This document shows positions 46,345 through 53,200 of a stretch of DNA of 64,000 bases, piece after piece; positions within the stretch are counted from its first letter, which is position 1; every line of letters starts with the position of its first letter. The DNA lies in assembly GCF_003790525.1 (NCBI RefSeq), contig NZ_CP033635.1. One strand, given 5' to 3'. The position numbers and the translations under genes are program-made. Origin of the DNA: Escherichia coli (lineage in GTDB: Bacteria; Pseudomonadota; Gammaproteobacteria; Enterobacterales; Enterobacteriaceae). Below the pieces are notes generated by a model, which was given only the letters and a program-made list of their open reading frames with translations, ran no database searches and was not told the DNA's origin.

Positions 46345-47229
46345 TCAGAACAGGCGATCCCACAGTGTGATCAGCAGGCGGATAATGCGATCACGGGCTT
46401 TGCGCAGAAGCTGCAGCATCCAGGCCGGAAAGCTGAACCGGGCAATGGCAGCGTCAAAACTCTGGCCGATGGCGTCACCAAAAGCCTGCTGTGCGTGTTG
46501 CTGATCCTGCGCAGTGCGCTTTTCATTCCGGATATGCGAATAAACCGCGCTGGTTGCCTGTGGTGGCAGGGCGTGGATCATCAGAGACACAAATGCCGGA
46601 AGATTCCAGCCGGCAGGAGCGGCTATGGGGAGTACCGGAAATGATGAAGGGAACAGGGTTGCCACCCGGGCTGTCACCGTCGCCAGTGAGAGTTCCTGCT
46701 GACGGGATGGCGTGCTGCTCTGGTTGTTCCATTCTTCAGCCGGGTGGATGCGATCGGCATGGCTGAGAACAAACAGAAAACGCGAGGGATCGGCACCTTC
46801 ATTCAGTAAAAACTGATGCATGGCGATGTCGGCAGCATACGCACGTTCATCAGCCCGCAGGATCCAGATAATCAGATCCAGTTCGGGCAGTAACTGACTG
46901 TAAAGTGCCCGGTATTCCTGATCATGCTGTGGTGTTTCGCCAGTGCCGGGCAGATCGACCAGCGTCATTCTTCGTTCACCGGGCTGAAAGGTAAGACGAT
47001 GAGCCTGACGGGTGCAGCCGTTCAGCGGATGCGTGGCGCAGACACGGGACTGAAAAATGGCATTGCACAGGCTGCTTTTTCCGGCACCGGATTTACCCAT
47101 AATGCCAATAACGGGTTCGTACTGAATGACGCTGCGAAGATGTTCAAGGATTTTCTGGCGAATTTCTTCAGGAAGAAAGGTCAGATGTGACTTTACGTGT
47201 GCGGAGAGGGAAGAATGGCTGAATGACAT
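46345..47229 (-). CDS. YeeP/YkfA/YfjP-family GTPase
   Basis: 294 aa with P-loop GIMGKSGAGKSS and DLPG switch motif; first gene of the minus-strand CP4-like operon. Confidence 0.8.
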   Translation of the reverse strand: MSFSHSSLSAHVKSHLTFLPEEIRQKILEHLRSVIQYEPVIGIMGKSGAGKSSLCNAIFQSRVCATHPLNGCTRQAHRLTFQPGERRMTLVDLPGTGETPQHDQEYRALYSQLLPELDLIIWILRADERAYAADIAMHQFLLNEGADPSRFLFVLSHADRIHPAEEWNNQSSTPSRQQELSLATVTARVATLFPSSFPVLPIAAPAGWNLPAFVSLMIHALPPQATSAVYSHIRNEKRTAQDQQHAQQAFGDAIGQSFDAAIARFSFPAWMLQLLRKARDRIIRLLITLWDRLF

Positions 47230-48553: not shown

Positions 48554-50092
48554 TGTGAAAATATTAAATTTATATTACATTTTAATTATCGACAAAAAAC
48601 ACATAAAGAAATCTAAAGGGAATGAGCGTCAAATGAGCTGATATAGCGCCAGTTTGGTATGGTCATGTGATTTGATGATTAAAGCTTACGAATAATAACA
48701 CTCCTCTGTGAGCCATATAAATGAGCATGCCATAATCGTCAGTTCAGAGATAAAACTGACTGAATGATCTTATGTTATAGTAAGCAGTGTTTACCGGATA
48801 CGATGACTTATCTCTCTCACATCATATGGATTCACTTTCATGGGGTAAAGCGATGGGACTACAGACGCTGATTATGATGGTTTGCTGTAAAGTTAGCACA
48901 AGTTTTTGCTGTACAGAATACGGAGTAAGAAAAATAATTCCAGAGTAAATCTGCTCTGCTTTTGAACAGAAAAGATTCATGCTTACCGTGAAAAACTGAA
49001 ACCAACATTCAGTCTGCATGGATGTCTTAAGATGTTGAGAATGTCGGATATGGTATTATATACACCTTTTCCATTAGGTCCTTTTATGTTTTCATTAAGT
49101 CGTTTTGTATGTATTCCTCCAGTGATTCATTAGTGCCTGTTTACGCATTTACACACTTTCCCATTAATCTCCTTTAAATGTGTTTCATTACGCATTGCTG
49201 TACACATTTTTGAACTGATACACATCCAAGTTAGTAAACCTGTCAGTTCTGATTTTACGTTAACTAAATCAGTTTAATGCTGCTGTAAAACAATCCTTCC
49301 TGTTTAAGCAATCAATCTGCTATTCGATTTTACTGATGTGACGTTTAACCTTTCCTGAGCTTTGGTTGTTTGTGGTTTTTGGTTTGTGTTTCGACGTTAA
49401 GCTGAGAAAAGTATCTTTACGCTAAATCAACCCGAACTTTCCTGAGGTGATCTGACGTTCTTTTCGATGTGCTTACGACGATTCTGTTAAACGACTTTCT
49501 GGATGTTTTGATAACAATCAGATTGAGGCATTAACGATTCCTGACGTTTTGCTTTTTCATGTAAGGTCATTGTTTTCGTCATGATGTGGTTTTTCTTCTT
49601 GCATTGCGAAAGTGTGATGATTGGTTTTGGTTTTTTGATTCAGATGAGATTTACGTTATCGATGGTTAATCGTTTTTATGGTGCGTAGTGAAACGTAACA
49701 TTTTCGGGATGAGAAAATCGATTCTGATGGTGATGGGGATGATCGTGTTACGGCGTTATCTGTAAACAGGTTTTAAACGTGTCATTCGCATTCGTGATTG
49801 AGTTGTGTGATTAAGCTGTAGGTTTTGGCGTTGTTGTTGATTTGCATTGCCAGGAAGCGTTCTGGTTGCGTTTCTGGTGTTTTGTTCGAATGTTCTGTGG
49901 ATCCTTTTCCCTTCAGGCTTTTCTCGTCGTCCATGTCGTTTTTAAATCCATTCATGCTGTTGTTGCGTGTTTTGCTGCTGTGTGCAGGATTATCTTTTCG
50001 TTCCGGGATGGTTTGTTCCGTTTCAATCACTCTTAATCAGAGAGTTGTAGCATTGCTTAATGGCATGATGCCGTAAAGTTTTACCGCGGTGA

Positions 50093-50128
50093 TTAATGAT
50101 GTGAAGTCAATCCAAATCAACGGAGATC
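50093..50128 (+). promoter_or_regulatory. conserved leader motif upstream of yagK-like gene 1
   Basis: ttaatgatgtgaagtcaatccaaatcaacggagatc includes GGAG 8 nt before ATG 50136; repeated at 51034-51065. Confidence 0.4.
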
Positions 50129-50135
50129 TCTCATC

Positions 50136-50867
50136 ATGAATCAACCAATACACAATGCTTACTGGTTATCCCGTTTTGACAGCCTTCTCGACAGTGCCCT
50201 GTCGCAGCACCGTGCCGTCTCGTTAATCCGGGTGGATTTACGTTTCCCTGAGTATATGCCTGTCACCATCATGGATCCCGATCCGGATTCAGCGGTGATT
50301 TCTCGTTTTTTCGAATCCCTGAAAGCCAAAATCCAGGCTTACCAGCGGAAAAAACGACGTGCCAACAAGCGTGTGCGTGCAACCACTCTGCGTTATTTCT
50401 GGTGTCGGGAGTTTGGCAAGGAAAAAGGCAGGAAACATTATCACGTGATATTGCTGCTCAACAAAGATACCTGGTGCTCGCCAGGGGATTTCAGCGAACC
50501 ATCTTCGCTGGCGACGATGATCCTGGAGGCATGGTGCAGCGCCCTGCATCTTGAGGCCTGGCAAGGCGATGGCCTGGTCCATTTTTCCAGGTGGACGCCT
50601 TCCCGTAAACCAGCATCGTCTGATGCTCGCCCTTCTTCCGATGACACGCCTTTGTCGGGTGGATGTTCTGATACCAGGAAGGCTTCAGAAAAAAAGCCGG
50701 GTGAAGCCGCTGTTCTCTGGATCAAGCGTGGTGATGTGGAAGCGCTGCAGAAAGCCCGGAACAGAGCCAGTTATCTCGTGAAATATGAGACGAAGCAGCA
50801 TGACGGTTCCGGGCAACGTAATTATGGTTGCAGTCGTGGGCCGGGGCGTCTGCTGGATGGCAGGTGA
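50136..50867 (+). CDS. YagK/YfjJ-family (inovirus Gp2-like) island protein
   Basis: 243-aa ORF with family-typical basic stretch and VDLRFP-like block; family from memory. Confidence 0.65.
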   Translation: MNQPIHNAYWLSRFDSLLDSALSQHRAVSLIRVDLRFPEYMPVTIMDPDPDSAVISRFFESLKAKIQAYQRKKRRANKRVRATTLRYFWCREFGKEKGRKHYHVILLLNKDTWCSPGDFSEPSSLATMILEAWCSALHLEAWQGDGLVHFSRWTPSRKPASSDARPSSDDTPLSGGCSDTRKASEKKPGEAAVLWIKRGDVEALQKARNRASYLVKYETKQHDGSGQRNYGCSRGPGRLLDGR

Positions 50868-51033
50868 GCCCTGTAAAACGACATCCGGTGCCTGAGCTTA
50901 TGCTACAGGACGTTGGCTGACGCCCTTAGCTCGTTTTCTGAAAAAGTCGTCCTGAAGTCATGCAACGGTATTTTTCTCTGCTTTCGCTCCTGGAAACACT
51001 CCGTCGGTAAAACCTTACTGTCCTGCTTAATGA

Positions 51034-51065
51034 TGTGAACCGAAGTCAACGGAGATCATTCATTC
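51034..51065 (+). promoter_or_regulatory. second copy of the conserved leader motif
   Basis: cttaatgatgtgaaccgaagtcaacggagatc; the equivalent start position reads CTG followed by an early stop. Confidence 0.4.
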
Positions 51066-51211
51066 TGAACCTGCATCCGGTGTTCTTTCCCTTATCTTCC
51101 CGTTCTGCTTCGGTTCTTCACTTATTCCATCAATCTCATTCGTAAACCATAACACGTCAGCTCATTCACGGGCAGGACGCGTTGTGGGCTGCGCATAACG
51201 GAGCATATCTT

Positions 51212-51784
51212 ATGAATGCTATCCCTTATTTCGACTATAGCCTGGCCCCCTTCTGGCCATCTTATCAGAGCAAAGTTATCGGTGTCCTTGAGCGTGCGCT
51301 GCGTGAGCAGTCCGGCTCCAGGATACGGCGGATCCTGCTTCGTCTGCCGTGTGAATATGACAGTACCTTCAGCAGCAGAAAGACCTGGTTTGGTATGGAT
51401 TTTATCGAAACCGTCAGTGCGCTGATGAATGCAACCCCCGGACGCGACCTCTGCTGGCTCCTGACACGTCATCCTGAAAAACCGGAATACCACGTGGTGC
51501 TGTGCGTCAGACAGGAATATTTCGACGGCCCTGAGCTGGACCGGTTGATTCTGGATGCCTGGAGCAACGTACTGGGCTTCGCGGCACCGGGTGAAGCAGC
51601 ACCGTACCAGAAACAGATAACCCGGGATGTGGTGCTGGACAGTTGTTCACCGGACTGCGAAGAGAGACTCAAAGAGCTGATCTGGGCGTTCAGTGATTTC
51701 GCCCGCGATCGTCGTGGTGTGCGCGATCCGGAAGCCCGTTACCTCGCCGGTAATCCCTGGTATCCCGTAGCAGGCCAGCTCTGA
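51212..51784 (+). CDS. YagK/YfjJ-family paralog, N-terminally degenerate (possible pseudogene)
   Basis: ORF 51182-51784 shares family features (ILLRLPCEYD, HYHVVL); ancestral start region is disrupted. Confidence 0.5.
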   Translation: MNAIPYFDYSLAPFWPSYQSKVIGVLERALREQSGSRIRRILLRLPCEYDSTFSSRKTWFGMDFIETVSALMNATPGRDLCWLLTRHPEKPEYHVVLCVRQEYFDGPELDRLILDAWSNVLGFAAPGEAAPYQKQITRDVVLDSCSPDCEERLKELIWAFSDFARDRRGVRDPEARYLAGNPWYPVAGQL

Positions 51785-51852: not shown

Positions 51853-52089
51853 ATGTTGACCTCAATGACAGGTCACGACAGCGTATTGCTGCGTGCCGAC
51901 GATCCCCTGATCGACATGAACTACATCACCAGCTTCACTGGTATGACCGACAAATGGTTTTACAAGCTGATCAGTGAAGGCCATTTCCCTAAACCCATCA
52001 AACTGGGGCGCAGCAGCCGCTGGTACAAAAGTGAAGTGGAGCAGTGGATGCAGCAACGAATCGAGGCATCACGAGGGGCAGCAGCATGA
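51853..52089 (+). CDS. alpA: AlpA-family phage/island transcriptional regulator
   Basis: small HTH protein with FPKPIKLGRSSRWYKSEVEQWM motif; alternative start ATG 51916. Confidence 0.7.
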   Translation: MLTSMTGHDSVLLRADDPLIDMNYITSFTGMTDKWFYKLISEGHFPKPIKLGRSSRWYKSEVEQWMQQRIEASRGAAA

Positions 52090-52289
52090 AACGTGTTGTA
52101 ATGCCGGTACGCTGGCAATGTGCAAAATACCAGCGTTGGTATTGTGGAAATCAGCCCTGTCCCTGGTGCTGGCGACCTGCTGCCCCCGTCTGTCATTCCT
52201 CGTTCTTCGCTGTAACAGGCATCGTACCGGTCTCGGCGTGCTTTCCTGCGTACCGACACCGGTTCAGCAACATTCAAGGGGATCAAATC

Positions 52290-52838
52290 GTGCAAATAAC
52301 CGAAACCGTACTTTCAGAGCCGGTGGAAATCCGGCGTTTTATTCAGCAGGCGGTGGATCACTGGCCGCGTCTGCTGGCCGTCCACTTCACACTCCATTCG
52401 GCAGAAGGAAACATCAACGGACAACAGATTCATGCATTCTGTACTTCCTTTTACCGACAGGTGCACGAGCGTATTACTGAACGTAATCACACGGCCAGTC
52501 CAGCACCACCGGTGGTATTACGCTGGTTGCGGGAACAACATGGAGGAGCAACAATGCGATGCCTGTTGCTGCTCAGCCAGACGAGCATTTGCCATCCACG
52601 GGTCAGTGCCACGGTTGATGAAGAATGTTCGCAACGGGTGGATTTATTGCAACAGACATGGCGGGTGATAAGTGCTGACGGACAATGCCGGGTGGAAAGG
52701 TGTTTTCAGGCTGCCCGGGGTGATACATCCGGCCAGTATATTGCGTTAAAAACAGTTGCATTGTCTCTGGGGTTACCGGTTGTGACCGGTATTACCCATC
52801 GCCCGGTACAGCGCTGTACATTGATTACAGCTCAGTGA
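52290..52838 (+). CDS. hypothetical island protein (possible third YagK/YfjJ-like paralog)
   Basis: ORF 52044-52838; plausible GTG start at 52290 after AAGGGGA; the Cys-rich segment upstream looks non-coding. Confidence 0.4.
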   Translation: MQITETVLSEPVEIRRFIQQAVDHWPRLLAVHFTLHSAEGNINGQQIHAFCTSFYRQVHERITERNHTASPAPPVVLRWLREQHGGATMRCLLLLSQTSICHPRVSATVDEECSQRVDLLQQTWRVISADGQCRVERCFQAARGDTSGQYIALKTVALSLGLPVVTGITHRPVQRCTLITAQ

Positions 52839-52855
52839 ACAGCGCTGTTGTGCAG

Positions 52856-53200
52856 TCAACGAGGTTTTCTGTCTTTTCGTCGGTCATTCAGCATCATTAA
52901 ACGGGTCTCTGCCTCTTTCTGTTCCTGTGGTGTCACTTCCCCGCACGGCTGACCGTTCAGGTTGTAACGGGCGCCACCTGCTATTAACGCACGGTAATAG
53001 CGCGGAGACTGCACATAAGACGCCACTGCTGCATGTAATGTACCAGCGCCAAACGCCAGTTCTCGGATGGCGATATCCTGTATCAGGTCGTCAGGTATCC
53101 CCACTTTAAGTGGTTTTGTTTTTTCCCGGTTGAATGACTCAGGCCAGAGTTCCACAAGACGAATAATGCGCTTACGGTTTTTGCTCTGGCGTTTTGTCAT
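52856..53200 (-). CDS. ProQ/FinO-domain RNA chaperone-like protein
   Basis: 114 aa resembling the ProQ N-terminal FinO domain (KPLKVGI.DDL, SPRYYRAL, NLNGQPCGEVT). Confidence 0.7.
   Translation of the reverse strand: MTKRQSKNRKRIIRLVELWPESFNREKTKPLKVGIPDDLIQDIAIRELAFGAGTLHAAVASYVQSPRYYRALIAGGARYNLNGQPCGEVTPQEQKEAETRLMMLNDRRKDRKPR

Follow-up and report, generated by a model that had tools for sequence, protein, structure and literature searches.

A 64-kb stretch of Escherichia coli DNA (contig NZ_CP033635.1), referred to here as the window and used for all coordinates, carries the conserved backbone of a P4-integrase-type genomic island. Two neighboring open reading frames (ORFs) of this island, the inovirus Gp2-like gene ORF1 and its remote relative ORF2, are each preceded by one copy of a direct repeat, the leader element. 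From the position, conservation, and recurrence of the element, we infer that the repeat probably represents two copies of one cis-acting control region, which would head the Gp2-like/AlpA module of such islands. The first-pass annotation of the window had instead proposed that leader and gene were duplicated in tandem and that the start codon of the second copy then decayed, with ATG becoming CTG, an early stop in the frame, and translation resuming at position 51182 or 51212, leaving ORF2 truncated or repaired at its N terminus; on the evidence below, that course of events is highly improbable. Thousands of E. coli genomes and many other Proteobacteria possess the functionally uncharacterized Gp2-like/AlpA backbone, and approximately 1,900 of the 5,426 complete genomes of E. 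coli contain the region analyzed here. Regarded simply as regulatory sequence shared between genes, the repeat is ordinary. Its interest lies in showing that a very common island module is headed by a previously undescribed element with strict internal spacing, which provides a handle on the control of the island core genes and could be of use in drawing the limits of modules within mosaic islands.

The direct repeat preceding ORF1 and ORF2

The repeat occupies positions 50073 to 50140 (leader copy 1; repeat families D1 and D2) and 51007 to 51069 (leader copy 2), both on the plus strand, and was recovered for both copies by repeat-family detection and by local alignment. The copies, 68 and 63 nucleotides (nt) long, are ∼78% identical with a single 5-nt gap, and their local alignment score of 41 lies above that of shuffled sequences (21.9 ± 2.3; maximum, 31). 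The shared motif reported by the first-pass annotation 5′ of the two genes is therefore real and extends beyond the ∼32 nt assigned to it. Within the 64 kb, TTAATGATGTGAA occurs exactly twice, at 50093 and 51027, and the composite pattern GTCAA-N(0-10)-CGGAGATC likewise has exactly two occurrences, compared to 0.01 expected by chance.

Copy 1 contains the palindrome GTAAAGTTTTAC, TTAATGATGTGAA, a CA-rich stretch, the Shine-Dalgarno (SD) sequence GGAG (50122 to 50125), and the ATG at 50136, the last two being the ribosome-binding site and start codon of ORF1. A regular-expression scan placed a bipartite box, TTTAC-N15-TGTGAA, at positions 50080 to 50105 (plus strand), with its half-sites beginning at 50080 and 50100. 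Copy 2 contains CGGTAAAACCTTAC, TTAATGATGTGAA, and GTCAACGGAGATC, together with a GGAG at 51051 to 51054 and a box of identical spacing, CTTAC (51014 to 51018)-N15-TGTGAA (51034 to 51039). At the position of the ATG of copy 1, it has CTG (51065 to 51067), from which a frame of 26 codons runs to a TAA (51143 to 51145); the next starts in this frame are TTG at 51182 and ATG at 51212. The GGAG and ATG of copy 1, the CTG aligned with that ATG, the early closing of its frame, and the two later starts are as the first-pass annotation had described them.

The control region, as we envisage it, would combine an A/T-rich tract whose last bases are TTTAC, a TRTGAA box set exactly 15 nt from it, and an inverted repeat, followed in copy 1 by GGAG and a start codon. 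Copy 1 would serve ORF1 directly, and copy 2 would head a unit composed of ORF2, alpA, and a UCP030791-type gene, with a fast-evolving leader of ∼150 nt between copy 2 and ORF2's own ribosome-binding site and ATG. The element would thereby place both units under the same control. A protein of the module (for example, the AlpA-like helix-turn-helix [HTH] protein or the Gp2-like protein) may bind it as an operator or as a promoter region that depends on an activator, it may form a leader hairpin that limits translation, or both may apply.

Relationship and intactness of ORF1 and ORF2

ORF1 (50136 to 50867, plus strand) encodes a 243-amino-acid protein of the inovirus-Gp2/YagK_YfjJ_C family, with a score of 128.3 bits (E = 3.6e-37) against PF11726 (YagK_YfjJ_C; gathering cutoff, 25.8 bits) and a further match to PF23343 (REP_ORF2-G2P; 41.3 bits, E = 1.9e-10). 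It possesses an HYH motif (residues 101 to 103) and the sequence YLVKY (residues 213 to 217), corresponding to the metal-binding and catalytic tyrosine motifs of the HUH type, and residues H101, H103, Y213, and K216 are invariant across 14 homologs. ORF1 thus carries the motifs of a Rep/Gp2-type HUH endonuclease, with putative catalytic activity. An AlphaFold2 (AF2) model of ORF1 (predicted local distance difference test [pLDDT], 76) found its best PDB matches among HUH Rep nuclease domains, although these were weak and not significant (E > 0.01). An insertion of ∼40 residues rich in Ser, Pro, and Asp (residues ∼150 to 190; positions 50580 to 50710), which is missing from Gp2-like homologs of other genera, is predicted to be disordered (pLDDT < 50). 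A search of the literature on yagK and yfjJ returned nothing functional.

ORF2 encodes 190 amino acids (coding span, 51212 to 51784; 51200 to 51784 on the plus strand with its own SD sequence, GGAG, at 51200 to 51203), with a start at ATG 51212, the one assigned by the Prokaryotic Genome Annotation Pipeline in the related locus L002. Its score against PF11726 is below the gathering cutoff (11.9 bits, E = 0.22). A word-indexed search found its relatives only in E. coli. Two distant relatives of full length, P0197 and P0209, were recovered by an exhaustive hidden Markov model search with the ORF2 alignment. Of these, P0197 has an E value of 7e-16 against the ORF2 profile and is itself a member of PF11726 (41.8 bits). 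Alignment of the ORF1 and ORF2 profiles with hhalign gave a probability of 73% (E = 3e-5) over 112 columns, pairing ORF1 residues 6 to 143 with ORF2 residues 14 to 127. On account of this match and the intermediate P0197, the two proteins are considered remote paralogs. Of the pair of YagK/YfjJ-like paralogs named in the first-pass annotation, ORF1 is thus a clear member, and ORF2 is, as far as profile comparison goes, a relative within the superfamily but not a member by the curated cutoff. In ORF2, E92-Y93-H94 stands in place of the HUH of the family, and its C-terminal region, of which the profile alignment stops short, shows no Tyr-x-x-Lys motif. Since EYH replaces HUH and no tyrosine motif is seen, ORF2 is probably catalytically inactive. 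The structure model of ORF2 (pLDDT, 47) was too poor for a fold search.

Several comparisons indicate that ORF2, although very divergent, is intact from ATG 51212 and complete at its N terminus. Homology to ORF1, P0197, and P0209 starts within the first 7 to 14 residues of the protein as started there, residue 6 of ORF1 sits opposite residue 14 of ORF2 in the profile alignment, and P0197 and P0209 begin at the residue equivalent to the ORF2 start. All 62 ORF2 protein clusters begin with MNAIPYFDY, none has an N-terminal extension, and the longer members are C-terminal fusions. The sequence GGAG/GGAA-N8-ATGAAT (51200 to 51217) is invariant in all nine alleles compared, including the divergent type-B allele of the upstream spacer. 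Near-identical RefSeq loci (97.8% identity) have the same genes annotated as the window, with the ORF2 start at the ATG equivalent to 51212. The lost start, N-terminal decay, and re-initiation proposed for the second copy are contradicted by these results, and the appropriate annotation of ORF2 is that of an intact gene with its start at 51212 rather than that of a decayed duplicate.

Adjacent homologous genes and a start codon replaced at the aligned position are what a pseudogenized tandem duplicate with 5′ decay would present, and the frame from CTG 51065 is indeed the frame of ORF2, closed by a single stop in the window. This short open frame (GTG 51035 or CTG 51065 to TAA 51143; 51035 to 51145, plus strand) is not conserved as an ORF. 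In CFT073 and L097, no stop interrupts it between the element and ORF2; in the window and in L001 it is stopped, and in L005, L006, L096, and the type-B alleles it is frameshifted, so that, because of indels in the spacer, it is stopped or shifted in most alleles. Frame-breaking indels are present in three of seven type-A alleles and in both type-B alleles. No third-codon-position bias is seen in the spacer substitutions, and a pyrimidine-rich spacer of this composition would be open in a given frame in 18% of cases by chance. No allele (0/9) has ATG at the position of CTG 51065, where type B has TTA or lacks the position altogether. We conclude from these comparisons that the CTG opposite the ATG of ORF1 has no coding meaning; since ORF2 is intact with a start of its own, the apparently lost ATG would belong to a second copy of the control element and not to a decaying gene.

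Between leader copy 2 and the ribosome-binding site of ORF2 lies a fast-evolving spacer (51063 to 51195, plus strand), in which type-A and type-B alleles are ∼38% identical, compared to 85% in the leader element; both spacer alleles are flanked on either side by near-invariant sequence. The 153-nt spacer carries indels of 12, 13, and 16 nt. The 12-nt polymorphism, GTCGGTTACCTG, has its insertion point at ∼51098 (L001, 7262 to 7273), and other alleles have 1- and 4-nt indels. A GC-rich hairpin at ∼51146 to 51190 (plus strand) lies directly 5′ of the ORF2 ribosome-binding site, in a segment (51085 to 51230) with a folding energy of −38.9 kcal/mol (z = −4.2), and is partly kept in the type-B allele; as it lacks a T-run, it is not an intrinsic terminator. 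A conserved small protein was also considered for the spacer and rejected, as the plus-frame ORF is broken in several alleles, and a 49-amino-acid minus-strand ORF annotated in the type-B spacer was set aside as having no counterpart in type A.

The extent of similarity between the two loci also fails to match a recent duplication. DNA similarity stops at ATGAA/CTGAA, and alignments of the sequences past the motif score 23 and 19, within the range of shuffled sequences, so the homology ends before the coding region of a second gene that is not truncated. Aligned pairwise, the two upstream regions share nothing beyond the leader, which is the outcome that the first-pass annotation had itself named as refuting its duplication. 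Furthermore, genes of types 1, 2, and 3 occur with alpA in other lineages. The gene order in L100 and L023 is zinc-ribbon gene, alpA, type 1, type 2, and type 3, with a gap of 46 nt between types 1 and 2, and L098 has the same gene set in another order. An ORF2-like gene adjoins Gp2-like and UCP030791 genes in at least two other enterobacterial lineages, PF27752 genes adjoin ORF2-like genes in L098 and L100, and alpA directly follows the Gp2-like gene in other genera. By these sequence comparisons, the protein pair is old and is not the product of a recent tandem duplication. Given an old pair with leaders that are still ∼78% identical, the age of the gene duplication does not account for the similarity of the leaders, which must stem from copying at a later time or from strong constraint.

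Conservation and recurrence of the leader element

Among 11 alleles from E. coli, copy 1 hardly varies from GTAAAG (50073) onward into the coding region, and the sequence 5′ of ∼50072 is variable. The most conserved intergenic block (50984 to 51062, plus strand) consists of copy 2 up to GGAGATCA and a conserved 5′ flank of 23 nt. In an alignment of nine alleles (A5), invariant columns make up 80 to 87% of this block, compared to 33% of the spacer and 9% of the region after ORF1.

Copy 2 could alternatively be a nonfunctional scar, a leader-only segment that arose by copying or was stranded when island modules recombined, and that is conserved only because it is young or hitchhiking. Copy 2 lacks the ATG, has CTTAC in place of TTTAC, and folds no better than shuffled sequences, and breakpoints lie nearby: homology with other island types ends at ∼50962 to 50983, and the spacer alleles switch right after GGAGATCA. 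However, a best-conserved intergenic block beside a spacer of 38% identity is hard to reconcile with neutrality, and the same layout, with the box far upstream, is found before alpA in unrelated lineages. We therefore regard a scar as unlikely.

The wider comparison of leaders covered 80 loci of other species with genes for Gp2-like homologs. A recurrent pattern was seen in their leaders: an A/T run ending in TTTAC or TTAAC, 15 nt, TATGAA/C, an A/C-rich stretch, an SD sequence, and ATG. In 21 Enterobacterales leaders, including those of Morganellaceae, the segment from the T-run to TATGA aligned without gaps and with the spacing of copy 1. TATGA was present at −26 to −34 in 29 of 73 nonredundant leaders, compared to 4.6% of background windows. 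The box precedes Gp2-like genes, or alpA, in other genera. In L100, L023, and L098, the box is followed by a GGAGAT-like sequence and lies ∼96 nt upstream of alpA, the first module gene in those loci; a box far 5′ of the start codon of the first gene, as in copy 2, is therefore a normal layout.

With three exceptions, the arrangements seen all have the box at the head of a unit with alpA and/or a Gp2-like gene. One exception is L008 (Providencia heimbachae), where a weaker second box-like sequence, TTTAC-N15-CTGAGC, lies 5′ of alpA and where GTAAAGTTTTACC, which is identical to E. coli copy 1, is likewise found 5′ of alpA at ∼4620 (plus strand). In the other two, the Cedecea and Pectobacterium loci L055 (∼5620) and L063 (∼5938), TTTACGCCACCGAGCAGTTTATGAG is located ∼2.5 kb downstream of the Gp2-like gene on the plus strand.

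Inverted repeats are present in the leaders, and their 3′ arm usually includes the SD sequence. The leaders fold better than shuffled sequences (mean z, −2.03, versus −0.43 for 257 control leaders; P = 4e-12). In copy 1, a predicted hairpin at 50091 to 50142 (plus strand) pairs the SD sequence and start codon, with a folding energy of −14.1 kcal/mol in RNAfold and a modest z of −1.85.

The combination of box and inverted repeat might also be the DNA target of the HUH-like protein of the Gp2 family, serving as its origin, nick site, or binding site, in which case the two direct copies bracketing ORF1 would define the segment acted upon. Origins of HUH proteins usually adjoin the rep gene and contain inverted repeats. 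ORF1 retains the HUH and YxxKY motifs and matches Rep families, the best structural matches of its model are HUH nuclease domains, and the inverted repeats fold equally well on both strands. On the other hand, the fold matches lack significance, the coincidence of the 3′ arm with the SD sequence points to expression control, the box is located 5′ of alpA and not of the Gp2-like gene in L100, L023, and L098, and no known nick-site consensus is present. A DNA target of this kind is thus improbable. The broader claim that the box is the cognate origin or nick/binding site of the HUH-like Gp2-family core proteins of widespread P4-integrase islands, marking the start of island replication or mobilization and not merely a site of expression control, seems quite improbable. 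The sequence GCTTAATGATGTGAAC resembles the nick site of f1 gene II; the likeness was dismissed because it is not conserved in other genera.

Expression control by a repeated cis-acting element remains the favored explanation, although a number of results weigh against it. Copy 2 has a weakened first half-site, CTTAC, and its predicted hairpin is weak (−7.4 kcal/mol; z = +0.27). RNAalifold detected no consensus structure in 31 hand-picked leaders, and the named helix was 59% paired, compared to 53.5% when shuffled, with no clear covariation. Folding of the plus and minus strands was equal, so this asymmetry test makes no distinction between action at the RNA and DNA levels. No Rfam family matched the leader element. 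No sigma-70 consensus promoter overlaps the box in either copy in the window or in L100, L024, and L014, and the spacing of TTTAC-N15-TRTGAA does not suit a −35/−10 pair (16 to 18 nt between hexamers for sigma-70). A sequence-only covariance model (R1) built from 21 non-E. coli leaders scored copy 1 with an E value of 2.5 and did not detect copy 2; as the model gives no profile-level proof, the link between the E. coli copies and the wider leader family rests on position, spacing, and shared boxes. The box is also absent from the yfjJ, alpA, and yagK leaders of strain K-12. As for other promoters, TAAAGTTT in copy 1 matches the sigma-28 −35 consensus, and a sigma-28 promoter was ruled out there, the −10 part having no match.

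Among known systems, the Ff inoviruses have a gene II whose mRNA leader serves as a translational operator for the gene V protein. The likeness lies in a Gp2-type initiator-like gene, here ORF1, behind a conserved leader that plausibly limits expression. The leaders are, however, unrelated in sequence, no gene V homolog was identified here, folding shows no strand asymmetry, and the genes belong to chromosomal islands rather than to a filamentous phage.

A second parallel is offered by the AlpA/Vis-type regulators of P4-like elements, among which AlpA of CP4-57 is reported to activate intA. The module includes a 78-amino-acid PF05930 protein, and the box heads the alpA unit in most arrangements, as an autoregulated operator would; however, the alpA leader of K-12 lacks the box, which is here a candidate site for this family. 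AlpA of Pseudomonas aeruginosa is a larger, Q-like antiterminator with its HTH at residues 128 to 142, and its AlpA-binding element (ABE), GGGACG, is located between −35 and −10 (PMC9371919). The name AlpA and an element embedded in the promoter, with a leader beyond it that RNA polymerase must traverse, recall the present case, but this model was rejected, as its protein and site match neither the 78-amino-acid protein nor the box. Gp2-like and AlpA proteins have been described as core genes of tmRNA-integrating Pseudomonas genomic islands, in a backbone with RadC (bioRxiv 10.1101/2024.08.29.610337). The same gene pair and the same neighbors are found in the window, whereas the hosts and integration sites differ, and the leader element and the ORF2-like and UCP030791 paralogs are not described in that study.

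Gene neighborhood of the island module

Downstream of ORF2, the module continues with a gene for the AlpA-family HTH regulator (51853 to 52089, plus strand; 78 amino acids), which matches PF05930 (2e-10) and the PHROG excisionase/regulator families, and with a third module gene of the UCP030791 type (52290 to 52838, plus strand; GTG start, 182 amino acids), identified from L001 and L002, near-identical loci in whose RefSeq annotation it is labeled "YagK/YfjJ domain-containing." A ProQ/FinO-family gene (52856 to 53200, minus strand; PF04352, 3e-21) is convergent with the module. Between the convergent UCP030791-type and ProQ/FinO genes, positions 52808 to 52848 contain an inverted repeat, ACAGCGCTGTACATTGA and TCAGTGAACAGCGCTGT, with 88% complementarity and a 7-nt loop, which is probably a bidirectional terminator.

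Between alpA and the third gene (52086 to 52289, plus strand), a Cys-rich stretch, WQCAKYQRWYCGNQPCPWCW, runs across the stop codon of alpA in the reading frame of the UCP030791-type ORF. It has no Pfam match, and other strains have a 41-amino-acid ORF annotated at this position. Since a full zinc-ribbon protein precedes alpA in related islands (L023, 1972 to 2406; L100, 1323 to 1751), the stretch may be a zinc-ribbon remnant or a small zinc-ribbon gene.

Upstream of the module are a GTPase gene (46345 to 47229, minus strand), an ORF of 407 codons with no assigned function, and then a T/G-rich, gene-poor stretch of 1.6 kb (48554 to 50135) that ends at ORF1. The sole RefSeq feature of this stretch is a small hypothetical minus-strand ORF (49782 to 50030), which has no Pfam match. 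A recombination breakpoint lies at positions 50962 to 50983. ORF1 and ∼100 nt 3′ of it are shared by many islands of E. coli, such as L011, L092, and L093, which then, just 5′ of the position of leader copy 2, change to unrelated cargo, including a TIR-like protein and an acyltransferase. A full-length Rfam match (150 bits) to istR, an Hfq-binding antitoxin RNA, at 3602 to 3731 (plus strand) marks the tisB/istR locus at the chromosomal end of the window.

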